A stretch of DNA of 64,000 nucleotides from Arenicellales bacterium (GTDB lineage Bacteria > Pseudomonadota > Gammaproteobacteria > Arenicellales > JAJDZL01): NCBI GenBank assembly GCA_965116205.1, contig OZ220493.1, positions 1,412,510-1,476,509 of the forward strand, in the 5' to 3' direction. The notes below the pieces were generated by a model. That model was not told the DNA's origin and did no database searches. It was given only the letters and a program-made list of their open reading frames with translations. Both the position numbers and the translations under genes were made by a program. Positions within the stretch are counted from its first letter, which is position 1. The number at the start of each line of letters is the position of its first letter. Positions 7,201 to 53,300 of the stretch are shown one piece after another.

Positions 7201-7798
7201 TCAAACCATAGAAATTGAGAACTTAAATACGTCGGTACATGGAGACAGTATAGAAAGAAAAAACTCTTTACCGTATCTTCTATCAAGTGCCGAAAACGAA
7301 ATCAAACGTGTATTGACACCAGTTAACTCTTCAAAGACAAGTAATTTACCGACAAATACCACAGCCACTGTAATTCAGCCCAATCCTTCCGAAAACTACG
7401 TTTGGAAAAAAGGCATCTCTGCACCGATCATAGAACTTCCGTTGCCCAAGACACCTGTCCGACCAAAAACTACTTTTCGAGCATTGCAAGAGTGGGAAGG
7501 ATATGTAGTCAGTATTGAAGAAGATGAGTTCGTGGCTCGTCTGATAGATATAACAGCCGGTGCCACATGTGAAACCGAAGAAGCGATAATTCCACTGAAA
7601 GAAATTTCCGATAATGATGTGGCCAATTTGGAGATCGGTAGCAAATTTCGTTGGGTAATTGGTTACGAGCAATCACCCGAGGGGACGCGAAAACGGATAT
7701 CTGAGATCATCTTCCGCGATCTTCCGAGAATAACTGAAAGCGACTTGCAAGCGGGTAGAGAGTGGGCTAAAAAGATAATTGCGGCTTTCACATCGTGA
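7187..7798 (+). CDS. hypothetical protein (S/T/N/P-rich N-half, compact C-terminal domain)
   Basis: I prefer the internal ATG at 7187 (SD AAGGAG at 7175-7180, 6 nt upstream) to the tracked 7112. It overlaps the upstream gene by 14 nt. 203 aa, no motif recognised. Confidence 0.5.
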   Translation: MSQSSQTIEIENLNTSVHGDSIERKNSLPYLLSSAENEIKRVLTPVNSSKTSNLPTNTTATVIQPNPSENYVWKKGISAPIIELPLPKTPVRPKTTFRALQEWEGYVVSIEEDEFVARLIDITAGATCETEEAIIPLKEISDNDVANLEIGSKFRWVIGYEQSPEGTRKRISEIIFRDLPRITESDLQAGREWAKKIIAAFTS

Positions 7799-30485: not shown

Positions 30486-31337
30486 TTATCCACGATGTAG
30501 AAATGGCAGCAGGACTTGGGCAACCCGTTCGGCGCTATCCATATGACAGTGATGACCCCCATCAATATCAACAATTGCTAAATTCTTCAACAGTGGTTCT
30601 CGACCCTGTAGTTTTGGCCATTGTTTGAGAATGCCGGCGTTGGCACGCACCAGCATCGCTTCACATTGGACTGCACTCAGATACGTGCTTACATGCTCTT
30701 CGGCAAGGTAGATGGGAGAGGGTCGGTTGAGTCGGCGGTCGGTTCGCCAGGCATATCCACGGCTTGTTTCAGTGAGATTGCGGCGGACAATCAGTGTGGC
30801 CGCCGCCAAAGATAAATCGCCGGCTTGTTGCCGGACCCGAGCTGCCTGTTCAACAGTTTGATAAAACCGCGCCGGGGATGCGACTTTAGTGGTTTGCTCA
30901 ACATGACGTTTATATTGGGTCAGTAAGTCTTCCGGTGGTGCGGTAATGGGCGCAATTCCTTCGATCATCGCCAGGCGACTGATTCGGTCTGGGACCACCG
31001 CCGCAATCAGCGCCGCCACGCCGGCCCCTAACGAGTGGCCGAGTAAAGTGAATTGTTTGAGTTGCAGTGCGTCCGCAGCGAGAATCACATCCATTGCATA
31101 GTCAATGAAGTGATAAGCATTGGCGCCAAGGCGATGACTGGATTTTCCATGTCCTGGAAAGTCAAGCGCAATCAGATGTACACCGGATAAGTGCTTTGCG
31201 AGTGGAATGAAACTGGCCGCATTATCCAACCAGCCATGCAGTGCCAGCACCGGTAGGTCGGTGTGATTGGTTGAAGTCAGCGCAGAAAGCGTGAGATTGG
31301 TTGTTTCGATGATAGTTTCTTTTAATTCAAGTGTCAT
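30486..31337 (-). CDS. alpha/beta-fold hydrolase
   Basis: I prefer the internal ATG at 31337 (MTLELKE..., 284 aa); the tracked 31490 start adds an implausible Cys/Trp/His-rich leader. HGWLDNAASF, nucleophile elbow GHSLGA, C-terminal GGHHCH. Confidence 0.8.
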   Translation of the reverse strand: MTLELKETIIETTNLTLSALTSTNHTDLPVLALHGWLDNAASFIPLAKHLSGVHLIALDFPGHGKSSHRLGANAYHFIDYAMDVILAADALQLKQFTLLGHSLGAGVAALIAAVVPDRISRLAMIEGIAPITAPPEDLLTQYKRHVEQTTKVASPARFYQTVEQAARVRQQAGDLSLAAATLIVRRNLTETSRGYAWRTDRRLNRPSPIYLAEEHVSTYLSAVQCEAMLVRANAGILKQWPKLQGREPLLKNLAIVDIDGGHHCHMDSAERVAQVLLPFLHRG

Positions 31338-32262
31338 CGGATTGAAATCTGAACAGAACTGTGGCATATGCTGATGAATATGCACCCAGTAGCGGGTTTT
31401 CAATGTCGCACTGGATGCTGGAGGCCAAAAAATGTATGATCGGTAATACTTGGAACAAGTCAGAATGATTATATTGTCGTGGGTTATCACGAAGGCTGGA
31501 TAGTGATCATCCTGAATTGACCATGGTGAAGATTGGACAATGCCGGTAAAGTCGTCGCACCGGTTGCATTATTTCGATCTGTCACTCAATGTGTACAATC
31601 GTATGTCGTGTCCGAACTTGACGTTTGATCCCGTCATCCGTCTTTGTTGAGCGTCGTAGTAGAAGCACTTCATGGTGATGAGTTTGGGCTGTACTCCTGG
31701 AAAGGTAAGAATGGATACTCCATCTGAAACAACCGGTCGGTCAACTCTCCATCTTCTGTCGGTCCTTGGTGACTGATGCCGGCTAGTTGATGTCGCATGG
31801 CGACTATTGTTCGCCTATCACCTCCAGTCGCCAAAATTCTTACGTATTCCGCCGGATATCCGCTGAAGCCGAGACGTAGCAGTCAGAACATCTATCCGGT
31901 GAATGGCGCAGTGACATCAACCTCAGTTTTGATGGATGACTGAATCTGATTGCGCCAAAAATTGACAGATTTCATTTTCCATTGCTCATTCAGAATATCA
32001 ATTTTTCTGTGAATAAAACAGATTGTCGTTATAATCAGAATCATTTTTTGCAGTGTAAAGCTACCTGACTCTGATTTTCAGATGATGCATTAACGCCATG
32101 TAAACTTTCGCGAAATTGAAAGTGATCGGATGAAAATGAATGTAGGAGAATTGAGAAAGTGGGTGAATTGGACAAGCCGAGTCGACAAAATTATTCAATG
32201 ACTGTGTCAAGTGAAAGAGGTAACGAGAAACACGCGAAGCTGATCGTATTGGCAGCAGTCAG

Positions 32263-32283
32263 AAAATTTTTTGGGGGGGGGGG
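32263..32283 (+). repeat. A4-T6-G11 homopolymer block ending 8 nt upstream of the giant-gene ATG
   Basis: AAAATTTTTTGGGGGGGGGGG read directly (11 G at 32273-32283), then TGAAGCCG and the ATG at 32292. Confidence 0.9.
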
Positions 32284-32291
32284 TGAAGCCG

Positions 32292-32384
32292 ATGGCTACC
32301 CGCCAGAGGATGTCCTGTTGCCTGAATGCGGCATTACTCACCTTGTTGTTGCTGGTTGTGGCCGTATCACCGGTCACACAGGCG
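32292..32384 (+). other. Sec signal peptide of the giant protein
   Basis: MATRQRMSCCLNAALLTLLLLVVAVSPVTQA|QS: basic n-region, hydrophobic core, and an A-x-A-like TQA cleavage site. Confidence 0.7.
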
Positions 32385-35300
32385 CAGAGCATACCCCCAC
32401 AGCCCGAGCCCGCGCAGCTTTTCAAAGCTTTCGCGGGTGATCAGGAAATAACGGTTACTTGGGATAGCCCCCGACTCGCGGAAAATTTCCTGCGTTGGGA
32501 ATTATCCATACAGCCCCGAGGTCGGGGTAAGATTGCCCGAGCGGATGTTGTCTTTATCACTGAGAGGCGAGCCAGCTATTCGTATACGTATAGAGAATTC
32601 ACGGAATTAAATTCAAGCGGAGGCTATAAAGAAACTAAAACCAGGCTCAAAAATGGTCAGACTTACGTCATTGATATTGTAGCAAGGTACAGACTAAATG
32701 AATCTACTACAGCAGGTTCAGATTATAAATCAGTTTCCGCAACACCGGTGCCCAAACCTGCCAAACCAGTCAATTTCCGCGCCACATCGGGTAATGAGCA
32801 GATCACTTTGGCTTGGCAACAGCTGACTGACCAAAGCACGGTAACAGGGATGGTAGAAAGCATCTCTCGTTGGGAATACCGGCAGAAAATAGGTGCGGCG
32901 CCCTATGGCATGTGGACCGCTATTCCCAGTTCTGAAGGTGAAACCGCCAGCCATGTTGTGACCGGTCTGAACAATGGGACAGTTTACCGATTCAAAGTTC
33001 GCGCGGTTAATCCCACCGGCAATGGTGTTGAATCGGCGGAGGTAACCGCGACTCCCATTCCGTCAGGCAAAGTCAGCCGCCTGTCAGTTGACTCGAACCG
33101 GATTACGGAGGGGAATGCTGGAATCAAGCATGTCAACATCTACATTACGCTAGGTGAGGCGGCGCCTACCGGTGGATTTGGTTTGGGCTTACAGTTTGTT
33201 CAAAGGCGTAATCAAGGGGCAGTGTCATTCATGGATGGATATGGTTGTGGCGGAGGAGTTGCTCGAAATGCACCTGATCCAAAGGCGGATATGTGCTGGA
33301 TTAGGCGTAATGTGACAATTCCAGCCGGCGAAAGGACAGGCCGGTTTGTCATTGGTATCATTGGCGATACGGATGTTGAGGTAGACGAAAGTTTTGCAGG
33401 TTTATACGCCACTGGCAGAGTAGACGGTTGGGGTCAAATAAATCCACAAATTCCGTCACTTACGATCGTCAATGACGATGGCATACCGACAGGTTTGGTG
33501 GCCACGCCGGGTAACCAACAGGTAACGCTGTCTTGGACCGGTCCAAGAGACAATAACATTACTCGCTGGGAATATCAGCAGAAGGAAGGTGCGGATGGCT
33601 TTGGGGCCTGGCAGACAATCAATCCGCGTTCCAATACCTATGTGGTGGAGAATCTGAAAAATGACGTGGCCTACGCGTTCAAGGTGCGTGCCGTGTACAG
33701 AACCATCAATGGTCCCGGTCCGCCTTCCGAGGAAGTGAGTGCGACACCGACTGCTCCTCGTATCATTATTCCGATCAGAGAAATGACGTTGGATGAAGGC
33801 GGGCATGGCAGTTACAACGTGCAGGTCAGTCTTCGCCCGACAGAAAACGTGACAGTGGTTGTGAGTGGTGCCACAGATGGCGTGTCCGTATCGCCAAGTA
33901 GCTTGACCTTCACACCGGTGAATTGGAACATTCCACAGAATATAAGAGTCGACGTGGGTGAAGATGATGACGCCGTCTCTGAAGATGTGACCCTGAAGCA
34001 CCGTGCGACGGGTAGTGGCTTTGCCGCCGCAGTCAGTCAAGCGGTGGTAGTGAGAGTGAGGGACAACGACAGCACCGGTCTCACTGTTTCGGTGCCCGCA
34101 CTCACGATAACGGAAGGCAGTCGCGCCGCTTATACGATGAAGCTGAATTCGGAGCCGACGGACGACGTGACGGTGACCGTGGGTGGCGTATCGGGTGACA
34201 TATCGGTTTCGTCAAACAGTCTGACGTTCACGGCTTTGAATTGGAACATTCCACAGCCGGTGATGGTGTCAGCGGGCGACGATGCGGATGCGAAGAATGA
34301 TGCTCCGGTGACGCTGACGCATAGCGCGGCAGGTGGTGACTACGATTCGGTAACCGTTGAGCTTATGGTGACGGTGACCGATGACGACCCACCGATACAA
34401 CCGAAGAACTTTACGGTGTCGGCCGGCAATCAACAGGCGACTCTGACCTGGGACGACCCCGAAAATCCCAACATCACCGGTTGGGAGTATCAGCAGAGGA
34501 CTGGAGATGGCAGTTATGGTGCATGGGTGCCCATCGCCAACTCCGACGCCACCACCACGACGCACCCGGTAACCGGCTTAACCAACGGGACGGTTTACGC
34601 CTTTAAGTTACGAGCGGTGAACAGTGCTGGCAATGGCGTTGAGTCAACCGAGGTGACAGCGGTGCCATTCGGAGCTGGCAAGAAAATAACGCTATCGACT
34701 GCCAAGACTAGAATTACGGAGGGAGATGACGGATTTAAGTTAATTGACATCAGCATAACAATCGGTGAGACAGTGACTGCGAGCGACGGCTTGCAGATTA
34801 CCTTTGAAATTAACAAAACGGCTTCGACGGCCACAACAATCGATCCCGGCAATTATCTGGCATCTTGTACTGAGCCGAATCCGGCAGACGCGGACCAATG
34901 CTGGATTGTTGCTCCTAACCGGGGTTCTGTCTCTACAGGCAGTTCCTCAAGCAACTACCTCATCGGCATTTTGGGCGACACGAGAGCCGAGAATGACGAA
35001 ACTATCGTGTTGAAAGCAGTGCCTGACGATGTTGCCTATACCGGCGGCTCGATTACCCTAACCATCGTTGATGATGATGCGTCTCCCACCGCTCCAACGG
35101 ATTTCAGTGTGATGCCGGGTAACGCACAGGTTGAGTTGTCTTGGACCGGCCCCGATGATGCAAGGATCACAAGTTGGGAATACCGGCAGAAGACGGGCAG
35201 TGGCACCTTTGGGAATTGGATTTCCATGCCGGACTCTGATGCCACCACCCGAACTCACACGGTATCAAACCTATCCAACAGCACCGTTTATGCTTTCAAG

Positions 35301-38300
35301 GTGCGCGCTGTCAATAGTTTTGGTGCGGGAACTGAATCCCCTGAAAAATCAGCCACGCCACGGGCACCACCGGCCTCACCAACCGGTTTAACTGCCACCG
35401 CTGGCGATGGTCAGGTGTCGCTGTCGTGGACCGATCCGAATGACGTCAGTATTACCCGTTGGGAGTACCAGCAGAAGGCCGGCGGTAGTTTTGGAAGTTG
35501 GATGGCCATTGCCGGTTCCGGCGCCAGCACCACGACATACACGGTAATCGAACTCACGAACGGGACGGAATACGCCTTCAAGGTCCGCGCGGTAAATCGC
35601 AGTGGAGAAGGTGGTGAATCAGCTGAAGCCACAGCGACTCCGGTACCCCCGGTGCCACTGGCACCCACCGGTCTCACCGCTACCGCTGGGAATACACAGG
35701 TAGCGTTATCTTGGAATAATCTGCGCGACGCTAGTACTATCCGCTGGGAATACCAGCAGAAAGCTGGTGGTAGTTATGGTAGCTGGATGCCCATTCCGGG
35801 TTCAGATGCTACCACCATGGGTCATACGGTGACCGGATTGGTGAATGGGACGATATACACTTTCAAGGTGCGCGCGGTCAATCTCGGAGGCAGCGGCGCC
35901 GAATCTGGCGAAGCATCTGCAACGCCGCTTCTACCACCGCTCAAACCTACCGGTTTCAATGCCACCAAGGGTGAGGGCCTGGTAAAGTTGTCCTGGAATA
36001 ACCTGAATAACGCCAGTATTACCCGCTGGGAGTACCAGCAGAGAGCCGGCGGCGGGAATTATGGCAATTGGACGACTATGCTCGGGTCCGGTGCGGCGAC
36101 GACGCAACATGAAGTGGCACGTCTGACCAACGGAACAACCTACACCTTCAAGATTCGCGCGGTGAATACCGCCGGTCCTGGCGCAGTCTCAGATGCGGTG
36201 TCAGTGACACCGCTCGCGCGACCCGCGAAACCTACTGGATTTTCGGCAACCTCGGACTTCAAATCGGTGAAGCTGTCGTGGACCAATCCGAATAATAACA
36301 GTATCACCCGCTGGGAATACCAGCAACGGGCCGGCACCGGCGGCAGTTATGGTTTGTGGATGGCTATTCCGAACTCAAGTGCTAGTACCACCACGTACAC
36401 AGTACCCGACTTGAACAATGGTACGGCCTACAGCTTGAGAGTTCGCGCGGTGAACGAGATTGGCGCTGGCCGGCCATCAGACGTGACGGTGGCGACCCCG
36501 GCGCTCCAACCACCCCATCAACCAACTGGCTTAAGCGCCGAAGCGAGCGATGGGCAAGTGGTGCTGAGATGGCACAATCCGAATAATTCCAGAATTACCG
36601 GTTATCAATACCAACAGAAGGAGAGTAGCGGAAATTATGGGGGTTGGCAGACTATTACTGGTTCCAGCGCCACCACCACGACGCACACGGTGACCGGTCT
36701 AACCAACTGGACAACTTACACCTTCCAGATTCGCGCGGTGAATTCGGCCGGCAACAGTCCTGCATCTGCCGAAGTGCAGTCGACGCCCATCCCCAGAACC
36801 GCTAAGCCAACGGGTTTCAAAGCGGTACCGGGCAACCGTCAAGTGATTTTGACATGGGACGATCCGAAGGATACCGATATCAAAGGCTGGTTCATTCGGT
36901 ATAAGCCAAGATTTCTAAACAAATGGTATCGTCACGTGATCATCCCTGGTTCAGACAGGAGCACTACGAGTTTCACGGTAACTCGTTTGGTAGTCACTTT
37001 AGATCGCGGTAACACAAAAAGTGATCCTCTAAACAATGGTACTAAGTATGATTTCCAGGTGAGCGCATACCGTAGCACCAGGGATTTTCCAGATGATTTA
37101 CTCTGGTCGAATGTGGTATCCGCAACTCCGTTACCACCCCCAGCGCGACCAACCGGGTTTACCGCTGTCCCCGTTGGTGATGGTGCGGTGCAACTGAATT
37201 GGAATAATCCGAACAACGCCAGTATCACAAAATGGCAATACCAGCAGCAGGAAGGTAGTAACACACCAAGTTGGTTGGATGTCAAAAACTCCGGGGCGGA
37301 CACTACGAAACAAGTCGTAACAGGACTGACCAACGGCACTGAATACACTTTCAAAATTCGCGCCGTGAATATCGCTGGTAACGGTGCCGAATCCGGTGCG
37401 GCGACTGTGACTCCAACGCAACCGGGAGCTGATGTGTCGCCATTGAGTATCACCGTAGAGGAGAATGATAAAGAAGACTACGAGATTAAGTTAAAAACTT
37501 TACCTTCGGGTAATGTAACAATTGTTGTGAGTGGTGCTTCTGGAGATGTTTCGGTATCACCGAATCGTCTGACGTTCACCCCTTTGAATTGGTCAGCGGC
37601 ACAGAAGGTTACAGTGTCGGTAGCTAAAGATGATGATGCGATTGATGACGAAGACGTAACCCTATTACATAGGGCTTCAGGTGGTGGCTACAACTCGGTA
37701 TCAATTGATTCGGTGACCGTATCGGTGAACGATACTACGCCAACACTGCAGTTGTTGACCGCCCCATCCTCGGTGACTGAGGGGATGGATATCAGTCTGA
37801 CAGTGACATCTGATCGAGCTCTGACGGGTACGCATCCGATCAGTCTGAGCTTAGCCGACCGAGATGCCAGTGGTTTTACAGCGGCCGATATTTCAGGTTC
37901 GCTTGGCCGCCGGAACTTTGATGCTATTTTCGGCGAAACGGCCAGCACGACGGGAACGGTCGCCATCCCCACCGTCCTTGACAGTGATAAAACGGAGGGT
38001 ACAGAGACCTACCGAATTACACTACACGACGCGACAGATTATGAGGTGGGCAGTAATGTTGAGGTTGATGGTGAGCTGGTTGATGCTACCAACTTGGTGT
38101 CGGTGCCGCAGACGCAGTCACTGAACGAAGGTGGGAGCAATACCGCGGTAACAATCTCGACGGATGCAAGCTTCGGAACGTCAGTGAAGTTCAACGTATC
38201 CTATAACGACATCAGCGCTACCGGAGCGATTGACCCGACCAACGGTGACTATGACAGTGATGCGGTGTCCTCTGTGACGTTCGACACCTCGGAGACGTCG

Positions 38301-41300
38301 AAGGACATCGAAATAACGCTCAACGACGATGGTCTGGATGAAGCTGACGAGACTTTCACGGTGACCGTGGCGCTGGCCGATGGCAGCACACTGCCAGCTG
38401 GGTTCGCGCTGGACAATACGGTGACCATGGTGACCATTGTTGATGACGACGAAACGCCCGTACTGGAGGAGATTGCGGATGTGACAGTTGATGTGGGCCA
38501 GGATGTTGATATCACAGCGGTGGCGACAGATGGCGACAACGACGCAGTCAGCTATAGTTGGGCACGTAAGGCCGGTGAGACATCTCCGGCCATTCCGAGA
38601 AACACCAACCTGACAGCGGCGCGACTGACGTTCACTACGACATCGCGCGGCACTTATACGATGACGGTGACCGCGGCGGATGGCCATGGCAATTCAGATA
38701 CAGAAGAGGTGGTGATCACGGTCTACCTGCCGGTCCCCGTTGCACCAACAGGATTCCGCGCGCAAGCAGGTGATGCGGAGGTGGTGCTGTCTTGGAACAA
38801 TCCCAATAATCCGAGCATTGATGGCTGGGAGTATCAGCAGAAGGAGGGTAGCGGTAATTTTGGTGATTGGTTGCCTATTTCCGGTGCAGATGCTTCAACG
38901 ACGACGCACACGGTGACCGGTCTTACGAACGATGCGGTTTACACCTTTAAGATTCGTGCGATGAATGTTACAGGAGATGGTGACGAATCGACGGAGGCAA
39001 CAGCAACGCCGCGCCTTGCGCCGCCTGACAAACCAACCAAATTCACTGCTGTAGCGGGTGACATGAAGGTGACGCTGTCTTGGAAAGACCCGAAAAACGC
39101 CAGCATTATCCGCTGGGAATATCATCAATACGACGATGCTAATGAAATTGCTTCAGGGTGGCGGAGCATTCCCAATTCAGGTCCCAGCACCAAGACGTAC
39201 ACCGTGACCGGCCTGGCGAACACATTTACCTACGTGTTCAAGGTGCGGGCGGTGAATGTAGCCGGCAATGGTACCGAATCGGAAGAAATGGTAGCCATAC
39301 CAGAACTTCCCAGACCTAAAAAGCCACAAAGTATATCAGCCCTTCCGAGCAATCGTCAGATTGTACTGACTTGGGACAATGCAAACAACCCCAGTATTGA
39401 TGTCTGGGAATATCAGCAGAGGGAAGATGATGGTGATTTTGGTGAATGGTTGCCGTTTTCTGAGACATCCACTACCACCATGCACACGGTAACCAACTTG
39501 ACGAACGGCGTGACCTACGCGTTCAAGGTGCGGGCGGTGAATGCGTCCGGACCCGGCGACGAATCGGATGAAGTGACGGCGGTACCAATTCTGAAGCCAC
39601 CAAAACCGACCGGTTTCAGCGCTGACCCGGGAGATGGGCAGGTGACCCTGATTTGGACCAACCCGAATGATCAATTGATCGAAGGCTGGCAAGTGCAGTT
39701 CAAACTATCTATTCAGGTAGGATGGCCTACTCCTACTGAGGTTCCAGATGGCACAGCGACGGATTACGTGGTTAGGAATTTACAAAATCTTGAGTATGAT
39801 TTTCGCATTCGGGCGTACTACAGCGGCAGTAATTTTGGGCGCTGGTCAGACACGAGGTCCACAACTCCAGTACAAAAAGGCGTTACAGTTTCGACGTCAA
39901 AATTGACGGTGGACGAAGGTGGACAGGGTAAGTACACAGTGAAGCTCAACACCATTCCAACAAGTGAGGTGACGATTGACGTGTTGGTTGGGGCAGGTTC
40001 AGATGATGTTTCGGTAAAACCGAATCGTCTGACCTTCACCTCCAGAAACTGGAATAAGCCGAAGACGGTGAAAGTGTCAGCCGCCAAAGACGAGGATGCG
40101 GTAACGGAGGCTGCGGTGGAGCTGATGCATAGTGCTAAGGGCGGTGGCTATGATTCAGTAGGGATAGACTCGGTGACCGTGACCGTGACCGAGACCACAC
40201 CGATTCTACAGTTGCTAACTGACCCTGTGGCGGTGACCGAGGGAGCCGATATCAGCCTCACCGTAACCTCCAATCGTGCACTGACTGGAACTTTAGCGGT
40301 GAATCTGACATTAGCCGACCGCGGAGCAAGTGGTTTTTCAGCGGCGGACATTCAAGGTGAACTGGGCCCGCGCAATTTTGATGCGACGTTTGGCGATAGT
40401 CCATCCATGACCGGGACGGTGGTCATTCCGACAAGTGCTGATTCGGTTGGGGAGAATGCGGAAACCTATCAAATTACACTGAATGATACGGCTGAGTATG
40501 AATTGGGTAACGATACGACGGCTGATGGTACATTAAATGACGATGGCAAGGGCGTGGTGCCGGCCACCCTCGTGTCGGTGCCGGCGACGCTAACGGTGAC
40601 CGAAGGGACCGATGCGAATGCGACGGTGACGATCACGTCGGGTGTGGCGTTCGGCCAGGCAGTGACCTTCAATGTCACCTACGGGGGCACGGCGACTGGC
40701 GCGGCGGTGCCAGGTGCCGGCGACGACTACGACAGCGATGCGGCGACGCAGGTGCAGTTCAATGCGACTGACACCACGAAGGACATCGTCATTCCGCTCA
40801 ACGATGATGCGCTGAACGAGGCGGCGGAGACCATCACGGTGACCGTGGCGGTGGTCGGCGGCAGACTACCGGACGGGTTCGCGCTGGGCAATGCGGTGAC
40901 CACGGTAACCATCACCGATGACGATGATGTCCCGACGGTGAGCATTGCCAATGCGGCGGCGGTGACCGAAGGCGACAGTGGCGATGCGACGATGACGTTC
41001 AATGTTTCGCTGTCGGCGGCGAGTGGCCGGGCGGTGACGGTGGACTATGCGGTGGATGCCGCGACGACGGCGACCGCGGGTACGGATTTCACGGCGGTGT
41101 CGGGCACGCTGACGTTCAGTGCCGGTCAGACACAGAAGCCGATTGCGGTCACCGTCAAGGGAGACACGCTGGATGAGGCGGATGAGACGGTGGTGGTGAA
41201 GCTGTCGAATCAGGCCAACGCCACTTTGGGTACGGCCACCGGCAGTGGCACCATCACCGATGATGACACGCTGAGTACGAGCTGGGCGTTGAGTGTGACC

Positions 41301-44300
41301 CCGGCCACGGTGACCGAGGCCAGTGGCACCACGGCGGTGACGGTGACGGCGACGCGCGCGGGCACGGCGACGTCGACGACGGCCACCACCATCGCCATTG
41401 CGGTGACCAGTGGCACGGCGACGGCGGGCAACGATTTCAGCGAGGTGACCGGTTTCAACCTCACGGTGGCGGCCGGGGCGACGTCGGGCACGGCGAATTT
41501 CGATCTCGTCGTGACCGCCGACAGTCTGAGCGAGGTGAATGAAACGGTAACTGTCGGTGGTACTTTGCAGGGCAACACGTTCAATGGCACCACGGTGACC
41601 ATCACCGATGACGATGCGGTGCCGACGCTGAGCATCGCGGCGCCGATTGCGGCGGTGACCGAAGGCGACAGCGGCAGTACGAGCATGACGTTCACCGTCA
41701 CGCTGGGAGCCGTCAGCGGCCGGTCGGTGACGGTCGATTATGCGGTGGATGTCGCATCGACGGCGGCGGGCACGGATTTCACCGGGGGTGCCGGTACTTT
41801 GACTTTTGCGGCTGGTGAGACACAGCAGTCGATCACCGTCAGCGTCACCGGTGATGAGCTGGACGAGGTGGATGAGACAGTGGTGCTGAAGCTGTCGAAT
41901 CCCACCCACGCAACCATCGGTACTGCCACGGCGACGGGGACCATTACTGATGATGATGCTTCGCCGGTGCTGGCGGCGCTGTCGGCCGTATCGAAGAAGG
42001 TTGGTCAGACGGTGACCGTCGTGGCGTCAGCCACTGATGCCGATGCCGACACGATCAGCTATGCCTGGACGAAAGACAGCGGTCCGGCGCTGCCATCCGG
42101 TACTAAGTTCGATGTGGCGACGCTGACGTTCACGGCGGCTACGGTCGGTGCCTATGTGCTGACGGTGACCGCTTCGGACGGTAATGACAATGAAGACACC
42201 AAGACGGTCACCGTTACGGTCTCCGCCGCGGATACGGTGTCGGTGCCGAAGCAGGTGACGGTGGCCGAAGGCGGTGGCAGTGTGACGGTGAAGGTGGCGG
42301 CCAGTGCGGCACTGGGTCAGGCGGTGACCTTAGATGTGACCTATGGTGGTGCGGCCAGTCAAACGGCGGACTACGATGCCACGGCCGTTACATCGGTCGA
42401 TTTCGGCACGACGGACACGTTCAAGAACATCGTCATTCCGATTACCGATGACCGGTTGGATGAGGTGGATGAAACCTTCACGGTCACCATTGCGTTGGCG
42501 GGCAGTAGCACGCTACCGGCCGGCGTCATACTGGGCAATGCGGTGACCACGGTGACGATTACCGACAACGACACGGTGAGCACGAACTGGGCGTTGAGTG
42601 TGGAGCCGGCCACGGTGACCGAGGCGAGTGGCACCACGGCGGTGACGGTGACAGCGACGCGGGCCGGCACGGTGACCGCGGCGACGTCCACGACCCTTGC
42701 CATTGCGGTGACCGGGGGCACGGCGACGGCGGGGACCGATTTCGATGCGGTGACCGGTTTCAACATCATGGTAGCCGCCGGGGCGACGTCGGGTGAAGCG
42801 GATTTCGATCTCATGGTCACCGCCGACACTCTTGATGAGGTGGATGAGACGCTAACCGTCGGCGGCACGCTGTCCGGTGCCACGGTGTCCGGCACCACGG
42901 TGACCATCACCGATGATGATGCGCCGCCGGCACTGAGCATTGTGGCGCCGAGTGCGGCGGTGACCGAAGGCGACAGTGGCAGTACGGACATGACGTTCAG
43001 CGTCACGCTGGGGGCGGCCAGCGGTCGGTCGGTGACGGTGGACTATGCGGTGGATGCTACGTCAACGGCGGCCGCGGGTACGGATTTCACCGGGGGTGCC
43101 GGCACCTTGACCTTTGCCCCCGGCACGACACAGCAGTCGATCACCGTCAGCGTCACCGGCGATGAGCTGGACGAGGACGACGAGACGGTGGTGCTGAAGT
43201 TGTCGGATGCCACCCATGCGAGCATTGGTAGCGCCACGGCGATGGGGACCATCACCGATGATGACGCATCGCCGGTGCTGGCCGCACTTGAGAATGAGAC
43301 GGTGGCGACGGGAGGGACGGTGTCGGTGACGGCAGCGGCCACCGATGCCGACGGTGATACTGTAACGTATGTCTGGACGCGCAAGACCGGGGAGACAACT
43401 CCGGCACTGCCGAGCACCACCATGGATGCGGCGACGCTGTCCTTCACGGCGGGTACGGCCGGTGTCTATACGATGACGGTGACGGCCTCGGACGGCAACG
43501 GCAATTCAGCCACCGCGACGGTGGTGATCACGGTGACGGCGAAGGTCGTGGTGTCGGTGCCGAAGAACCTGACGGTGACCGAGGGTGACGATACCAGGGC
43601 ACGGGTGACCATTGCCACGGCCACGGCGTTCGGCGAGTCGGTCACCTTCGATGTCACTTACACCGATGGCACGGCGACCGGGCATGGTACGCTGGCCAGT
43701 GGCGATTATGACAACGATGCGGTGACTTCGGTCACGTTCAGCGGCACGGATACGGAGCAACACATCGATGTGCCGCTCAACGATGATGATTTGGATGAAG
43801 TGAGTGAGCGGTTTACGGTGGGCATTGCGCTGGCCACTGGCAGCACGCTGCCGGCGACGCATACGCTGGGCAATGCGGTGACCCGGGTGACCATCAATGA
43901 CGATGATGAGCCGCCGACGGTGAGCATTGCCGATGCGGCGGCGGTGACCGAAGGCGACAGTGGCGAGGCGATGATGACGTTCAATGTTTCGCTGTCGGCG
44001 GCGAGTGGCCGGGCGGTGACGGTGGACTATGCGGTGGATGCCGCGTCGACGGCGATGGCGGGTACGGATTTCACGGCGGTGTCGGGCACGCTGACGTTCA
44101 GTGCCGGTCAGACGCAGCAGTCGGTCGCGGTCACCGTCAAGGGTGACACGCTGGATGAGGCGGATGAGACGGTGGTGGTGAAGCTGTCGAATCAGGCCAA
44201 CGCCACTTTGGGTGCGGCCACCGGCAGTGGCACCATCACCGATGATGACACGCTGAGTACGAGCTGGGCGTTGAGTGTGACCCCGGCCACGGTGACCGAG

Positions 44301-47300
44301 GCCAGTGGCACCACGGCGGTGACGGTGACGGCGACGCGCGCGGGCACGGCGACGTCGACGACGGCCACCACCATCGCCATTGCGGTGACCAGTGGCACGG
44401 CGACGGCGGGCAACGATTTCAGCGAGGTGACGGATTTTGACCTCACGGTGGCCGCCGGGGCGACGTCGGGCACCGCGGATTTCGATCTCACCGTCACCGC
44501 CGACAGTCAGGACGAGGTCAATGAGACGGTGGCCGTCGATGGCACGCTGTCGAGCAACACGGTCACCGGCACCACGGTGACCATCACCGATGACGATGCC
44601 ATACCGGCACTGAGCATCGCGGCGCCGAGTGCGGCGGTGACCGAAGGCGACAGCGGCAGTACGGACATGACGTTCACCGTCACGCTGGGGGTCGTCAGCG
44701 GACGGCCGGTGACGGTCGATTATGCGGTGGATGCCACGGCGACGGCGACGGGTACGGATTTCACCGGGGGTGCCGGCACGCTGACGTTCAATGCCGGTGA
44801 GACACGGAAGTCGATCACCGTCAGCGTCACCGGTGATGAGCTGGACGAGGCGGACGAGACGGTGGTGCTGAAGCTGTCGGATGCCACCAATGCGAGCATT
44901 GGCACCGCCACGGCGACGGGGACCATTACCGATGATGATGCGCCGCCGGCACTGAGCATCGCGGCACCGAGTGCGGCGGTGACCGAAGGCGACAGTGGCA
45001 GTACGGACATGACGTTCACCGTCACGCTGGGGGCGGCCAGCGGTCGGTCGGTGACGGTGGACTATGCGGTGGATGCTACGTCAACGGCGGCCGCGGGTAC
45101 GGATTTCACCGGGGGTGCCGGCACCTTGACCTTTGCCCCCGGCACGACACAGCAGTCGATCACCGTCAGCGTCACCGGCGATGAGCTGGACGAGGACGAC
45201 GAGACGGTGGTGCTGAAGTTGTCGGATGCCACCCATGCGAGCATTGGTAGCGCCACGGCGATGGGGACCATCACCGATGATGACGCATCGCCGGTGCTGG
45301 CCGCACTTGAGAATGAGACGGTGGCGACGGGAGGGACGGTGTCGGTGACGGCAGCGGCCACCGATGCCGACGGTGATACTGTAACGTATGTCTGGACGCG
45401 CAAGACCGGGGAGACAACTCCGGCACTGCCGAGCACCACCATGGATGCGGCGACGCTGTCCTTCACGGCGGGTACGGCCGGTGTCTATACGATGACGGTG
45501 ACGGCCTCGGACGGCAACGGCAATTCAGCCACCGCGACGGTGGTGATCACGGTGACGGCGAAGGTCGTGGTGTCGGTGCCGAAGAACCTGACGGTGACCG
45601 AGGGTGACGATACCAGGGCACGGGTGACCATTGCCACGGCCACGGCGTTCGGCGAGTCGGTCACCTTCGACGTCACTTACACCGATGGCACGGCGACCGG
45701 GCATGGTACGCTGGCCAGTGGCGATTATGACAACGATGCGGTGACTTCGGTCACGTTCAGCGGCACGGATACGGAGCAACACATTGATGTGCCGCTCAAC
45801 GATGATGATTTGGATGAAGTGAGTGAGCGATTTACGGTGGGTATTGCGCTGGCCACTGGCAGCACGCTGCCGGCGACGCATACGCTGGGCAATGCGGTGA
45901 CCCGGGTGACCATCAATGACGATGATGAGCCGCCGACGGTGAGCATTGCCAATGCGGCGGCGGTGACCGAAGGCGACAGTGGCGAGGCGACGATGACGTT
46001 CAATGTTTCGCTGTCGGCGGCCAGCGGTCGGGCGGTGACGGTGGACTATGCGGTGGATGCCGCGACGACGGCGACCGCGGGTACGGATTTCACGGCGGTG
46101 TCGGGCACGCTGACGTTCAGTGCCGGTCAGACACAGAAGCCGATTGCGGTCACCGTCAAGGGAGACACGCTGGATGAGGCGGATGAGACGGTGGTGGTGA
46201 AGCTGTCGAATCAGGCCAACGCCACTTTGGGTACGGCCACCGGCAGTGGCACCATCACCGATGATGACACGCTGAGTACGAGCTGGGCGTTGAGTGTGAC
46301 CCCGGCCACGGTGACCGAGGCCAGTGGCACCACGGCGGTGACGGTGACGGCGACGCGCGCGGGCACGGCGACGTCGACGACGGCCACCACCATCGCCATT
46401 GCGGTGACCAGTGGCACGGCGACGGCGGGCAACGATTTCAGCGAGGTGACCGGTTTCAACCTCACGGTGGCGGCCGGGGCGACGTCGGGCACCGTGGATT
46501 TCAATCTCACTGTTACTGCTGATAGTCGGGACGAAGCGGATGAGACGGTGGCCGTCAATGGCACGCTGTCGAGCAACACGGTCACCGGCACCACGGTGAC
46601 CATTACTGATGACGATGCGACGCCGGTGCTGGCGGAGATTCCTAATGAGACGGTGAAGTTGGGTCAGGCGGTGACCATCACCGCGGTGGCGACCGAAGAC
46701 GATGGTGACACGGTCACGTACGTCTGGTCGCGCAAGCCCGGAGAAACGATGCCGGTCATACCGAACGGCACGGCACTGAATCAGGCACGGCTGACATTCA
46801 CGCCGCCGGCGGCGGGCACTTACACGATGACGGTCACGGCGTCGGATGGCAATGGCAACACGGACACCGAAGAGGTGACGATCACGGTGACGGCATCCAC
46901 GGCGAGTGTAGCTGCCGCGGTACCGGTGCCGGCGCAACCAACGGGTTTGACGACAAAGGTGAACCCAAATAACGGGATCATACTTTCTTGGACAGCAACT
47001 GGTGATACGACTATCACCGGTTGGGAGTATCGTATTAAAGAATTGTTAGCCGCGAGTCCTGCTTGGGGAAATAGCGTCAGAATTTTAGGGGCTGATTCTG
47101 GGACAAGAACAGTTGAAGTTTACACAAGAGCCAATTTCTGGCATGGCCAAAAACTGGAATTCCAAGTACGATCGGTCAACATATCTGGAAATAGTCCTTG
47201 GTCAAGAATAGCTTCTGCGACGGTTAGTAACTCTTGGAATTTATCATTTGAGGTTAAACCGGCTGAAATTAGAGTTGTCCAAGGTGAAACTGCTACCTAC

Positions 47301-50300
47301 ACATTGACAAATGTGGGGTACGGAGTCCCGGGAAGGGCTGAGCTTTCCAGTCGGGACAGTAGTGTCGCTACAGTACCTTCGACTGTGAACTTTGAAAGTA
47401 CCCGCGAAACATCCAAGCAAGTCACGGTAACAGGGGTTGCAGTTGGTAGTACGGTCATATCTCACGACGCCTTCTATCACAAATGGGGTAGCAGGCCAAT
47501 CAATTCCTTCGCCTCATTTGAGAACATGGCTACGGTCAAGGTGAGGGTGGTACCACAAAAACCTGCCAAGCCGACGGGCTTGACCGCCAGAGCGGGTAAC
47601 GCACAGGTCACACTCAGCTGGACAGACCCCGGTAATTCCGACATTACGGGGTGGGAGTATCAGCGAAAGATAAACTCCAGTATATACAGTTACCGTCCTT
47701 GGGTCCCCATACCGGATTCAAGTGCCAGTACAACGAGCTATACGGTAAAAAATCTGACTGGAAATGTGAGTTATGCTTTCAGAATTCGGGCAGTTAATGA
47801 TGCGGGTGGTAGTCCGCCCTCAGATGCGGCCGTAGCACAAGTACAGTACCAAGCCCCCGCTAAACCTATCGGGTTAAAGGCGACCGCGGATGATAAACAG
47901 ATTACGCTCAGTTGGACAAATCCCATCAATCCTAGCATTTCACGATGGGAGTATCAGCAAAAAGCCGGCGCGGGAAGGTATGGTGGTTGGATCAAAATGC
48001 AAGATTCGAATGCGGCCACGTGGAGATACACGGTACGGAATTTGAATAATGGTACGAACTATACATTTAAGATCCGGGCAGTGAATGTCACGTCTCAAGC
48101 AAGTGCACCCTCCGACGAAGTGACGATCGCACCGGTTGTGCCATCTATAGTCTCGGTGCCGGCGACTCTAATGGTGGCTGAGGGTGCTGGTAATGCAACG
48201 GTGACCATCACCACGGCTGCGGCCTTCAGTCAATCGGTGACGTTCGATGTCACCTATGGTGGCAGTTCGGCGACCGGGGCGAACAATCCGGCGAATGGTG
48301 ACTACGACAACGATGCGGTGACCGCGGTGACGTTCGGTGTGAGCGACACGACGAAGGACATTGTCATTCCGATCACTGATGATAGTCGCGACGAAAAAAA
48401 TGAAACGTTTACGGTAACAATTGCTCCAGCTGCTGACCTACCACATGGGTTTAAGTTGGGCACCACGAAGACTACCGTAACCATCACCGACGACGATGAA
48501 TCACCAGTACTAGCTGAAATTAATGATGTCACGATCAAATTAGGTGAGACGGTGAATATCACGGCCTCGGCGACCGATGGCGACAGTGACACGATCACTT
48601 ATGTTTGGACGAGATTGAATGGTGAAACGATACCGGTCTTACCGAGCGGCACTGACCTGACTAAGGCGCGTTTGACCTTCACGCCCTTGGTAGGTGGTGT
48701 AAGTCCTTTTGTAGGTTCTAGTGCGAGTTACACGATGACGGTGACGGCGACGGATAGCGACGGTAATAAGGACACCGAGCAGGTGGCGATCACGGTAGAT
48801 GAAGAGGTCGCAGTATCGGTGCCAGTGTCAGTGTCAGTGACAGAGGGGACAGATGCGAATGCGCGAATAACAATAACACCATCATCAACATTTAATAGTG
48901 CGACAACCTTCAACGTTAGTTACAGTGACGGTACGGCAACCGGGGCGAATGTTCCATCTGATGGTGACTATGACAATGATGCGGTGACACAGGTGACTCT
49001 CAGTGCGGGCGACACCGAGAAACACATTGACATCCCGATCACCGATGATGATCTGGATGAAGACGACGAGACGTTCACGGTGACAGTTGCGGCCGCCGCC
49101 GCTCTACCCGGTGGATTCGAACTGAGTAAGACCACGGTGACCATCACCGATGATGATGAGTCGCCGGAGCTGGCGGCACTGGACGATGTCACGGTGCAGC
49201 TGGGTCAGGCGGTGGATGTGACGGCATCGGCGACCGATGGCGATGGCGACACGGTCACTTATGCCTGGACGCGCAAGACCGGGGAAACGGTGCCGGCCAT
49301 CCCGAACGGCACGGCACTGAATGCGGCGCGGCTGACGTTCACGCCACCGGCGGCGGGCACTTACACGATGACGGTGACGGCGTCCGATGGCAATGACAAT
49401 ACGGACACTGCGGAGGTGACCATTACGGTGTCGGCGGCGGCCGTGGTGTCGGTGCCGGCGACGCTGACGGTGGCCGAGGCGGTGGGCGATGCGACGGTGA
49501 CGGTGACCACCACGGCGGCGTTCGGTGAATCGGTGACGCTGAATGTCACTTATGGTGGCAGTTCGGCGACCGGGGCCAGTAATCCGGCGAGTGGCGACTA
49601 CGACAATGATGCGGTGACCGCGGTGACGTTCGGTGCGGCGGACACCACGAAGGACATTGACATTCCGATCACCGATGATGATCTGGATGAAGCAGCTGAG
49701 ACGTTCACGGTGACCATTGCGGCGGCTTCGAGCGGGCTGCCGGCCGGCTGGGCGCTGGGTACCAAGAAGACCACGGTGACCATCACCGATGACGATGAGT
49801 CGCCGGAGCTGGCGGCACTGGACGATGTCACGGTGCAGCTGGGTCAGGCGGTGGATGTGACGGCGGTGGCGACCGATGGCGATGGCGACACGGTCACTTA
49901 TGCCTGGACGCGCAAGACCGGGGAAACGGTGCCGGCCATCCCGAACGGTACGACACTGAATGCGGCGCGGCTGACGTTCACGCCACCGGCGGCGGGCACT
50001 TACACGATGACGGTGACGGCGTCCGATGGCAATGACAATACGGACACTGCGGAGGTGACCATTACGGTGTCGGCGGCGGCCGTGGTGTCGGTGCCGGCGA
50101 CGCTGACGGTGGCCGAGGCGGTGGGCGATGCGACGGTGACGGTGACCACCACGGCGGCGTTCGGTGAATCGGTGACGCTGAATGTCACCTATGGTGGCAG
50201 TTCGGCGACCGGGGCCAGTAATCCGGCGAGTGGCGACTATGACAATGATGCGGTGACTGCGGTGACGTTCGGTGCGGCGGACACCACGAAGGACATTGAC

Positions 50301-53300
50301 ATTCCGATCACCGATGATGATCTGGATGAAGCAGCTGAGACGTTCACGGTGACCATTGCGGCGGCTTCGAGCGGGCTGCCGGCCGGCTGGACGCTGGGTA
50401 CCAAGAAGACCACGGTGACCATCACCGATGACGATGAGTCGCCGGAGCTGGCGGCACTGGACGATGTCACGGTGCAGCTGGGTCAGGCGGTGGATGTGAC
50501 GGCGGCGGCGACCGATGGCGATGGCGACACGGTCACTTATGCCTGGACGCGCAAGACCGGGGAAACGGTGCCGGCCATCCCGAACGGCACGGCACTGAAT
50601 GCGGCGCGGCTGACGTTCACGCCACCGGCGGCGGGCACTTACACGATGACGGTGACGGCGTCCGATGGCAATGACAATACGGACACTGCGGAGGTGACCA
50701 TTACGGTGTCGGCGGCGGCCGTGGTGTCGGTGCCGGCGACGCTGACGGTGGCCGAGGCGGTGGGCGATGCGACGGTGACGGTGACCACCACGGCGGCGTT
50801 CGGTGAATCGGTGACGCTGAATGTCACCTATGGTGGCAGTTCGGCGACCGGGGCCAGTAATCCGGCGAGTGGCGACTATGACAATGATGCGGTGACTGCG
50901 GTGACGTTCGGTGCGGCGGACACCACGAAGGACATTGACATTCCGATTACCGATGATGATCTGGATGAAGCAGCTGAGACGTTCACGGTGACCATTGCGG
51001 CAGCTTCGAGCGGGCTGCCGGCCGGCTGGACGCTGGGTACCAAGAAGACCACGGTGACCATCACCGATGACGATGAGTCGCCGGAGCTGGCGGCACTGGA
51101 CGATGTCACGGTGCAGCTGGGTCAGGCGGTGGATGTGACGGCGGCGGCGACCGATGGCGATGGCGACACGGTCACTTATGCCTGGACGCGCAAGACCGGG
51201 GAAACGGTGCCGGCCATCCCGAACGGCACGGCACTGAATGCGGCGCGGCTGACGTTCACGCCACCGGCGGCGGGCACTTACACGATGACGGTGACGGCGT
51301 CCGATAACAATGACAATACGGACACTGCGGAGGTGACCATTACGGTGTCGGCGGCGGCCGTGGTGTCGGTGCCGGCGACGCTGACGGTGGCCGAATCGGT
51401 GGGCGATGCGACGGTGACGGTGACCACCACGGCGGCGTTCGGTGAATCGGTGACGCTGAATGTCACCTATGGTGGCAGTTCGGCGACCGGGGCCAGTAAT
51501 CCGGCGAGTGGCGACTATGACAATGATGCGGTGACCGCGGTGACGTTCGGTGCGGCGGACACCACGAAGGACATTGACATTCCGATCACCGATGATGATC
51601 TGGATGAAGCAGCTGAGACGTTCACGGTGACCATTGCGGCGGCTTCGAGCGGGCTGCCGGCCGGCTGGACGCTGGGCACCAAGAAGACCACGGTGACCAT
51701 CACCGATGACGATGAGTCGCCGGAGCTGGCGGCACTGGACGATGTCACGGTGCAGCTGGGTCAGGCGGTGGATGTGACGGCGGCGGCGACCGATGGCGAT
51801 GGCGACACGGTCACTTATGCCTGGACGCGCAAGACCGGGGAAACGGTGCCGGCCATCCCGAACGGCACGGCACTGAATGCGGCGCGGCTGACGTTCACGC
51901 CACCGGCGGCGGGCACTTACACGATGACGGTGACGGCGTCCGATGGCAATGACAATACGGACACTGCGGAGGTGACCATTACGGTGTCGGCGGCGGCCGT
52001 GGTGTCGGTGCCGGCGACGCTGACGGTGGCCGAGGCGGTGGGCGATGCGACGGTGACGGTGACCACCACGGCGGCGTTCGGTGAATCGGTGACGCTGAAT
52101 GTCACCTATGGTGGCAGTTCGGCGACCGGGGCCAGTAATCCGGCGAGTGGCGACTATGACAATGATGCGGTGACCGCGGTGACGTTCGGTGCGGCGGACA
52201 CCACGAAGGACATTGACATTCCGATCACCGATGATGATCTGGATGAAGCAGCTGAGACGTTCACGGTGACCATTGCGGCAGCTTCGAGCGGGCTGCCGGC
52301 CGGCTGGACGCTGGGCACCAAGAAGACCACGGTGACCATCACCGATGACGATGAGTCGCCGGAGCTGGCGGCACTGGACGATGTCACGGTGCAGCTGGGT
52401 CAGGCGGTGGATGTGACGGCGGCGGCGACCGATGGCGATGGCGACACGGTCACTTATGCCTGGACGCGCAAGACCGGGGAAACGGTGCCGGCCATCCCGA
52501 ACGGCACGGCACTGAATGCGGCGCGGCTGACGTTCACGCCACCGGCGGCGGGCACTTACACGATGACGGTGACGGCGTCCGATGGCAATGACAATACGGA
52601 CACTGCGGAGGTGACCATTACGGTGTCGGCGGCGGCCGTGGTGTCGGTGCCGGCGACGCTGACGGTGGCCGAGGCGGTGGGCGATGCGACGGTGACGGTG
52701 ACCACCACGGCGGCGTTCGGTGAATCGGTGACGCTGAATGTCACCTATGGTGGCAGTTCGGCGACCGGGGCCAGTAATCCGGCGAGTGGCGACTATGACA
52801 ATGATGCGGTGACTGCGGTGACGTTCGGTGCGGCGGACACCACGAAGGACATTGACATTCCGATCACCGATGATGATCTGGATGAAGCAGCTGAGACGTT
52901 CACGGTGACCATTGCGGCGGCTTCGAGCGGGCTGCCGGCCGGCTGGACGCTGGGTACCAAGAAGACCACGGTGACCATCACCGATGACGATGAGTCGCCG
53001 GAGCTGGCGGCACTGGACGATGTCACGGTGCAGCTGGGTCAGGCGGTGGATGTGACGGCATCGGCGACCGATGGCGATGGCGACACGGTCACTTATGCCT
53101 GGACGCGCAAGACCGGGGAAACGGTGCCGGCCATCCCGAACGGCACGGCACTGAATGCGGCGCGGCTGACGTTCACGCCACCGGCGGCGGGCACTTACAC
53201 GATGACGGTGACGGCGTCCGATGGCAATGACAATACGGACACTGCGGAGGTGACCATTACGGTGTCGGCGGCGGCCGTGGTGTCGGTGCCGGCGACGCTG

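Follow-up and report, generated by a model that had tools for sequence, protein, structure and literature searches.

The window (the whole stretch of DNA that was analysed, 64 kb) contains on its plus strand a giant gene of 25.6 kb (32292..57923), the open reading frame of which encodes 8,543 amino acids (aa) counted from its ATG. The predicted protein starts with a typical Sec-type signal peptide of 31 aa, recognized by inspection (MATRQRMSCCLNAALLTLLLLVVAVSPVTQA, 32292..32384, plus strand), with the cleavage site judged by eye to lie between MATRQRMSCCLNAALLTLLLLVVAVSPVTQA and QS. The passenger carries fn3, Calx-beta, PKD/K319L-like, He_PIG and Big_9 repeats, for which the domain matches had E-values of 1e-117 (fn3), 9e-86 and 2e-185 (Calx-beta) and 5e-152 (PKD-type). 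A C-terminal autotransporter beta-domain, a type Va translocator, was found at 56826..57920 on the plus strand (PF03797, E 4.3e-7, 30.4 bits at a cut-off of 26), and the protein terminates in ...LRGEIRW, i.e. in an aromatic residue (W). The combination of a signal peptide, a repeat passenger and a PF03797 beta-domain identifies the product as a giant type Va autotransporter of a diderm bacterium. As judged from these features it is a true surface or secreted protein, in agreement with an earlier first-pass annotation of the DNA, which had called it a giant surface protein and had recognized that the ATG at 32292 opens a signal peptide. Within the gene, eleven tandem units of 639 bp (213 aa) occupy 49235..56263 (plus strand); they are 98.6-100% identical to the first unit, except for the last one (92%), and are likely a substrate for recombinational copy-number change.

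The giant gene has a GC content of 58.9% compared with about 48% in both flanks, and the GC content jumps from about 40% to about 58% at a homopolymer tract located directly in front of the gene. The upstream region (31338..32291) is AT-rich (27-48% GC), forms the left edge of an island and is without counterpart in related genomes. Next to it lie aprBA and genes for a ZapG-like protein, a DUF1820 protein and an alpha/beta-hydrolase. The hydrolase was 100% identical to a protein (P0001) encoded on a 3.33-Mb contig, and its counterparts in two chromosome-scale metagenome-assembled genomes (MAGs), one of which is labelled Arenicellales, share 76% and 68% identity with it. Both relatives keep the aprBA-zapG-DUF1820-hydrolase synteny, and the homology (loci L013 and L014) stops exactly at 31337, where the hydrolase gene starts. 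In place of the giant gene both have toxin-antitoxin, IS, integrase and citrate-synthase genes. As other genes occupy this position in the relatives, they offer no orthologous tract for comparison. The foreign GC content and the break in synteny imply that the giant gene is a foreign insertion in a variable spot. Judged by sequence, positions 31338-64000 are a strain-specific island, the right end of which is not reached within the window, and the giant gene was probably acquired horizontally as a recent foreign insertion. Exact-protein look-ups with AprB and the hydrolase P0001 gave no match, and no relative turned up when metagenome contigs were scanned with a peptide pattern.

Elsewhere in the window, three tandem paralogs of 522 aa (17951-19519, 19724-21292 and 21412-22980) have predicted AAA-ATPase-like and PD-(D/E)XK nuclease domains (PF09820 and PF08011); the sequences upstream of the second and the third are near-identical. 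Directly 3' of the giant gene, an SNF2-family helicase gene (1,076 aa, DUF3670) shares a stop/start overlap with a gene for a 278-aa protein in which a SWIM zinc finger is weakly matched (E 5.4e-4, 19.9 bits, cut-off 19.6). This pair (58547-62613) may belong to the same island.

The homopolymer tract and the start of the gene

Reading of the sequence, directly and by script, gave the order CAG-AAAA-TTTTTT-GGGGGGGGGGG-TGAAGCCG-ATG from 5' to 3'. The block thus consists of A4 (32263-32266), T6 (32267-32272) and G11 (32273..32283), all on the plus strand, and is separated from the ATG at 32292 by TGAAGCCG (32284-32291), exactly as the first-pass annotation had described it with a tract ending 8 nt before the start codon. 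The A4-T6 part (32263..32272), which lies directly 5' of G11, is of ordinary run length: the window has 10 other T6 runs, 3 T7 runs and 29 A runs of at least 6, with A8 at 8567 and 59226. It may serve as an A/U-rich stretch 5' of the ribosome-binding site. The G11 run, the candidate slipped-strand tract, is the sole G/C run of at least 6 nt in the 64 kb. G runs of lengths 1 to 5 occurred 9344, 3471, 498, 112 and 22 times, lengths 6 to 10 were absent and length 11 was found once; the longest C run in the window is 5. The number of G runs of at least 11 expected per window is 0.025 under a first-order Markov model, or about 0.0014 when the observed decay of about 0.2 is extrapolated. By extrapolation from the shorter runs the whole window should contain about 7 of length 6 and none was seen, which suggests that the genome avoids slippage-prone G/C runs. 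In the related genomes the longest G/C run was C6 (two 20-kb loci, 41 kb).

G/C homopolymers are known to slip from about 7-8 nt upward. G11 is therefore above the length known to slip, and it is over-represented against the genome background. The view that the tract is of the classic contingency-locus type was supported in part, by its length and composition, by its being a unique outlier, by its location in front of a giant autotransporter gene and by the presence of homopolymers at the same place in homologs (see below), and a contingency-locus reading of G11 is plausible. As G11 is an assembled consensus, its true length is uncertain by about one base (10 or 12 are possible). Related assemblies have metaMDBG-style contig names, which indicates that the window is probably a long-read consensus as well. 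If the 11-mer were off by one, a different frame state would be the one 'as assembled'. G11 is nevertheless a real homopolymer and very probably slippage-prone, and hypermutability would be expected of it. A terminator composed of T6 and G11 was considered and rejected, since on inspection the order of the elements is wrong on both strands.

Shine-Dalgarno (SD) strength was scored for each candidate start as the duplex that its 20 preceding nt can form with the canonical anti-SD, a canonical 3' end of the 16S rRNA being assumed. The ATG at 32292 is preceded, at about 6-8 nt, by an 8-bp duplex (GGGGGUGA/UCACCUCC, one G.U pair) of -11.7 kcal/mol, scored with a spacing of 6 nt. The SD-like element, GGGGGTGA, is located at 32279..32286 (plus strand) and consists of the last 5 G's of the tract followed by TGA. 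With GGGGGUGA this was the strongest SD of the 20 start sites scored, and the first percentile of the background in the window was -9.8. For comparison, aprA scored -8.0, aprB -7.3, the GTG at 32159 that opens a leader ORF -7.3 and the TTG at 32271 -1.8 kcal/mol. The TTG (32271..32273, plus strand) is the sole in-frame start 5' of the ATG at G11; its frame opens after a TGA at 32241-43 and reads TTG, three GGG codons, GTG, AAG and CCG before the ATG. The earlier remark that this TTG, the tracked start, would place the tract in the coding sequence as Gly codons was right about the frame, but use of the TTG is unlikely as it lacks an SD, and for this reason it was discarded as the gene start. 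Because the strongest SD belongs to the ATG at 32292 and the TTG has none, the functional start is most likely the ATG at 32292, 3' of the tract.

This position has consequences for what slippage could do. As the tract supplies the SD with its 3' end, which stays at a fixed distance from the ATG, a slip of one base in either direction would cause no frameshift in the giant ORF and would leave the SD spacing as it is. The giant gene thus most likely does not show the intragenic arrangement in which a tract lies 3' of the functional start and a change of one base truncates the protein. Since both the SD spacing and the main frame are immune to slippage, modulation is predicted and a clean ON/OFF switch is not. 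Two of the mechanisms suggested by the first-pass annotation lose their footing here. Control through the geometry of the ribosome-binding site is not supported because the spacing between the SD and the ATG stays constant, and in-frame/out-of-frame switching of the gene is not supported because the TTG has no SD and the SD-bearing GTG at 32159 is out of frame at G11. The general idea of an ON/OFF or volume switch survived in part: a clean ON/OFF is not predicted, while a graded or three-state effect via the leader ORF is.

The best candidate promoter has a perfect -10 hexamer TATAAT at 32030..32035 (plus strand) with a weak -35, and is a consensus match only; a stricter scan gave no plus-strand promoter. 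Transcription from this site would yield a leader of about 250 nt that includes the leader ORF, with the tract about 240 nt into the transcript. Around the tract no sigma-70-like -35/-10 pair was detected on the plus strand in strict and loose scans for this sigma type. The tract thus neither lies between nor overlaps such elements, and the ATG is situated just 8 nt 3' of it, so that control through promoter geometry, which had also been suggested, finds no support. No Rfam family matched in 31300-32600, and the folds of the leader and the tract region were not better than those of shuffled sequences (z -1.3, -1.9 and -0.9). The poly-C leaders of homologous genes showed less structure than shuffles.

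The leader ORF and its frame states

The leader ORF (32159..32440, plus strand) has 93 codons at G11 and spans the tract. It starts with GTG, has an in-frame ATG at 32198 and is preceded by the SD AGGAG at 32144-32148, with a duplex energy of -7.3 kcal/mol at a spacing of 9, which equals that of aprB. The GC content of this region (38-48%) is similar to that of intergenic DNA, and in the leader ORF region conservation was not detectable. That an ORF beginning at 32159 crosses the tract in another frame than the giant ORF was thus correctly noted before, and so was its fusion to the giant ORF upon loss of one G, which was reproduced by simulating G10 (and was also found for G13). In these two states the fusion adds an N-terminal extension of 47-48 aa to the giant protein, which would include ...AAVRKFFGGGVKPMATRQR.... 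At G9 or G12 the simulated leader ORF terminates at the TGA at 32284..32286 (plus strand), 5 nt 5' of the ATG at 32292. In the assembled state, G11, the leader ORF extends to 32440 and so shares 149 nt with the beginning of the giant ORF.

Slippage in the tract would consequently reset the frame of the putative leader ORF while the giant ORF stays on. At a tract length of 3n (G9 or G12), the stop near the ATG would suit coupling of termination and reinitiation. At 3n+1 (G10 or G13) the leader ORF would be fused to the giant ORF and give an extended isoform, and at 3n+2 (G11) ribosomes that translate the leader ORF would run across the start site of the giant ORF. The outcome would be a stochastic, heritable and reversible modulation of the level or the isoform of the protein, and not a clean ON/OFF. 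Both the translation of the leader ORF and its effect on expression are deduced from the sequence and should be read as predictions. Given that the main ORF keeps its strong SD and its ATG in all states of the tract, the effect could be small or nil. We therefore put forward only tentatively, with slightly less than even confidence, the reading that the slippage-prone tract modulates expression via the leader ORF's frame, or in some other way via the 5' leader, without ever switching the gene fully off. The design of the window gene would then be unusual, with a tract that acts both as SD and as a three-state frame selector (coupled, fused or overlapping).

Tracts in homologous giant genes

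A scan with the first 500 aa of the giant protein against species-representative genomes yielded 12 loci in MAGs of Thermoanaerobaculia, Pseudohongiella, Paracoccaceae, Tepidiformaceae, Binatia, Arenicellales, Dehalococcoidia, Latescibacterota and others. This mix of taxa suggests a marine-invertebrate or sponge microbiome; published papers place Arenicellales in sponges. The N-terminus of the window protein was collinear with that of the Binatia homolog L006 (E 4e-8). Tracts of C8 to C27 just 5' of the signal-peptide coding sequence were present at nine homolog 5' ends on seven contigs other than the window. In the unbiased set, which stems from a few related assembly projects, a tract was found at 6 of the 10 visible 5' ends, the window with its G11 included; L001-L003, L005, L007-L009 are left out of this count as their 5' ends lie beyond the fetched DNA. 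The other five, all poly-C on the sense strand, are carried by three tandem paralogs of L004 (C16 at 1889-1904, C14 at 5085-5098 and C8 at 7313-7320), by L006 (C19, 139-157) and by L011 (C16, 1700-1715). The visible 5' ends of L010, L012, L015 and L016 had no tract.

Additional cases came from a protein library searched exhaustively with HMMER (1.84 billion representatives), from which the best 150 giant fn3 proteins were taken. A run of at least four Pro before the signal peptide occurred in 5 of 72 signal-peptide-like N-termini among these best 150 homologs, compared with 1.2% of internal 80-aa windows (p=0.0015). All four Pro-run cases that were fetched as DNA proved to be pure C tracts, C13-C27. 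They are L018 (C27, 3025-3051, after GGGAG-6nt-ATG), L019 (C18, 2029-2046, after TTGACA-N18-TATAAT and AGGAGG-5nt-ATG), L020 (C16, 2043-2058, ATG 8 nt later) and L021 (C13, 1672-1684, ATG 10 nt later), again poly-C in the sense direction; because they were found through in-frame Pro runs, L018-L021 are subject to ascertainment bias. The loci P0121 and P0123 had no 5' tract. P0156, with an N-terminal GGGG, was tried as a second sense-strand poly-G, but the underlying DNA, GGGGGTGGCGGG, does not form a tract. No match to the L004 leader came from a DNA-pattern scan, and none to the N-terminus of L004 g2 from a protein search in a database without those MAG proteins.

In L019 a TAG and a TAA in the two other frames follow directly 3' of the tract, and the neighbouring gene encodes an fn3 autotransporter. 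In L004 g2 and g3 the arrangement is AAGGAG-7nt-ATG-TCT-A-Cn, which continues in frame into the signal peptide. The flanks of the L004 paralogs are conserved (g2 and g3 are 84% identical) and their tract lengths are C16, C14 and C8. These differences in length have the appearance of a hypermutability signature for the homolog tracts. In nearly all cases a change of one base in either direction brings translation that began at the upstream start to a premature end after 15-64 aa, and the unbiased homolog tracts were in frame in 4 of 4. The intragenic frameshift design, i.e. start, tract and signal peptide in this order, was encountered in L019, L018 and L004 g2/g3. As far as can be read from their DNA, these best-defined homologs would have the design of a classical intragenic ON/OFF switch, like that of NalP and MspA.

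In the 223 kb of fetched loci all eight tracts of at least 11 nt were located at the 5' ends of giant genes, and all were poly-C. This recurrence at the same 5' position across the family makes a chance or artefactual tract unlikely and suggests that long homopolymers are maintained there. The strand is different in the window, which has poly-G on the sense strand where the eight long homolog tracts have poly-C. This implies that the window tract may not be the same device.

Near-identical DNA of giant fn3 genes was observed in chromosome-scale MAGs assigned to different phyla or classes. L001 and L002 (Thermoanaerobaculia and Pseudohongiella) were 98.9% identical over 6.7 kb, and positions 4249-5168 of L006 and 1-920 of L007 (Binatia and Pseudohongiella) 96.9% over 921 bp. 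The giant-gene DNA of L005, L007 and L009, three gammaproteobacterial MAGs, was 93-97% identical. The near-identity across phyla points to very recent transfer or to misassembly. The sharing of giant-gene DNA across phyla (93-99%) would fit the foreign composition of the window gene. It is possible, although we regard it as somewhat doubtful, that a family of giant fn3/Calx-beta/cadherin genes circulates horizontally across phyla (among them Gammaproteobacteria, Chloroflexota and Binatota, probably as symbionts that live together in marine invertebrates, for instance sponges) with exceptionally long 5' homopolymer switches (C13-C27 and G11) directly in front of the signal peptide, of which the window gene would represent a distinct design.

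Alternative readings and known systems

The homologs bring forward a different interpretation of the window tract, namely that of a classical intragenic ON/OFF switch. The true start would then be the GTG at 32159 or the ATG at 32198, the tract would be coding (Gly) and the gene would be expressed at G10 or G13, with the assembled G11 representing either an OFF-phase majority or a consensus error of one base. In the best-defined homologs (L019, L018, L004 g2 and g3) an SD and ATG are indeed followed by a few codons, the tract and the signal peptide, with stops in both other frames. The AGGAG at the GTG and the single continuous ORF that exists at G10 or G13 are consistent with the same layout in the window, and so is the internal Met after the tract, which L020, L021 and L011 also have, at a distance of 8-25 nt. 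However, the strongest SD of the set, at an ideal spacing, belongs to the ATG at 32292, the step in GC content from about 40% to about 58% coincides with the tract, and the 47-aa extension resembles neither extended signal peptides that are known nor the homologs' leaders. Besides, translation from the ATG at 32292 would persist at G11, so that the 'OFF' state would leak. For the window gene we consider such a switch unlikely.

In Neisseria gonorrhoeae, the G-run of pilC is said to have been placed by Jonsson and co-workers in 1991 within the region that encodes the signal peptide. The autotransporters NalP and MspA of Neisseria meningitidis phase-vary via intragenic homopolymers (PMC3723659). 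These 5'-coding poly-C/G tracts of secreted or surface proteins resemble the present ones, and their design is matched by the homologs L019, L018 and L004 g2/g3. The window gene differs from NalP, MspA and pilC in that its best start lies 3' of the tract and its main ORF is not frameshifted by slippage. Homopolymers at the 5' end of genes have been described as gene-inactivation devices, with slippage occurring about 1000-fold above the point-mutation rate (Orsi et al., 2010; PMC2831843), and in Listeria monocytogenes the poly(A) of inlA, which encodes a surface protein, is likewise found at the very 5' end of the gene (PMC2831843). In contrast to inlA and the genes of that set, in which the tracts are short poly(A/T) runs inside ORFs, those reported here are G/C tracts of 11 (window) to 27 nt (homologs) in genes for giant repeat proteins of uncultured bacteria.

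The tract could also be incidental. A G-rich SD (GGGGGTGA) would have expanded by neutral slippage, possibly after the transfer of the gene, and the run would perhaps be unstable but without a selected regulatory role. The 3' end of the tract being the SD, together with the fact that changes in length spare both the SD-ATG spacing and the main ORF, agrees with this, and so do its position as the sole sense-strand poly-G among the tracts of the family and the probably recent insertion of the giant gene. Against it, the lack of any other G/C run of at least 6 nt indicates that such runs are purged unless they are maintained, and long tracts are found repeatedly and independently at this site in homologs of other phyla. 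An incidental origin thus appears improbable, and modulation through the leader remains the reading that we prefer.

A third explanation places the effect at the level of the transcript. The length of the tract would change promoter use, elongation or stability (through a G-rich non-template strand, an R-loop or a G-quadruplex) and leave translation aside. The uspA1 tract is reportedly located far 5' of the start codon and is said, after work by Lafontaine and co-workers in 2001, to act on the mRNA level. In Moraxella catarrhalis uspA1 a G(n) tract 5' of the ORF sets the amount of mRNA, which is low at G8-10 and high at G11-12 (PMC7302503). In Treponema pallidum the tpr genes have poly-G tracts in their promoters, and transcription of tprL starts 4 nt 3' of a poly-G, the length of which modulates promoter activity (PMC7864442). 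The window tract lies 3' of the sole good -10 element and is thus probably transcribed, which would also agree with such volume control. What weakens the explanation is that the tract is neither flanked by nor part of a sigma-70-like -35/-10 pair, and that neither a significant RNA structure nor an Rfam family was found. Taken together, control at the transcript level seems quite improbable for this gene.

The likenesses to these systems extend beyond the mechanism. With uspA1 the window shares a G(n) tract of about 9-12 nt upstream of a surface-adhesin ORF and a change that is graded and not absolute (PMC7302503). In the window, however, the tract abuts and forms the SD, is 8 nt from the ATG and is crossed by a leader ORF, and UspA1 is a trimeric (type Vc) protein, whereas that of the window is of type Va and about 10 times larger. 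T. pallidum tpr and tp0126, N. meningitidis porA and opc and Bordetella fim have G/C tracts of 7-15 nt directly 5' of outer-membrane-protein genes, sometimes a few nt from the annotated start (PMC7864442). Their tracts are in or next to the promoter, either in the -35/-10 spacer or just 5' of the transcription start, whereas the window tract is without such flanking elements.

That the tract, or most of its length, is an assembly or polishing artefact and absent from the organism is very hard to believe: homopolymers are the main error class in long-read consensus sequences, the related assemblies have metaMDBG-style names and L016 (3x coverage) has an apparent frameshift at a C9, but the flanks are coherent (SD, ATG and an intact 25.6-kb ORF), the window has no other long G/C run, and an artefact would neither single out one gene family's 5' ends in assemblies made independently nor leave all four of the unbiased homolog tracts in frame.

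In pathogens and commensals of mammals, phase variation by simple repeats is textbook knowledge. As a rule, giant fn3, cadherin and Calx-beta proteins are discussed as factors by which symbionts recognize their host or evade phagocytosis. In the literature searched no paper was found that links simple-repeat phase variation to symbionts of sponges or other marine invertebrates. The class of mechanism is well known; for the context, tracts of up to C27 at giant 'eukaryote-like' adhesin genes of uncultured marine symbionts, the searches gave no paper. If the giant genes do carry hypermutable 5' tracts, a clonal symbiont population would contain adhesin-ON and adhesin-OFF cells as well as intermediate ones. 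Communities could in that case stochastically switch or tune host-facing 'eukaryote-like' adhesins, which would have a bearing on colonization, transmission and predation by phages or the host. For the annotation of MAGs it would mean that a 25-kb gene is recorded as intact, as N-terminally extended or as broken depending on a consensus error of one base at such a tract.

A few shorter G/C runs were noticed in the fetched loci. In L016 a C9 (7310-7318) is located in an fn3 homolog at an apparent frameshift that splits the gene; at 3x coverage this may be a sequencing error or else a true tract within the gene. In L003, 22 nt separate the stop codon of the Paracoccaceae homolog from a C9 (7897-7905), and the next ATG follows this run at about 50 nt. 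In L015, from a MAG of 69% GC, an inverted homopolymer pair G9-N7-C10 (6791-6816) is found just 3' of a small fn3 gene; it resembles a terminator hairpin, and runs of 7-10 are commoner in high-GC genomes.
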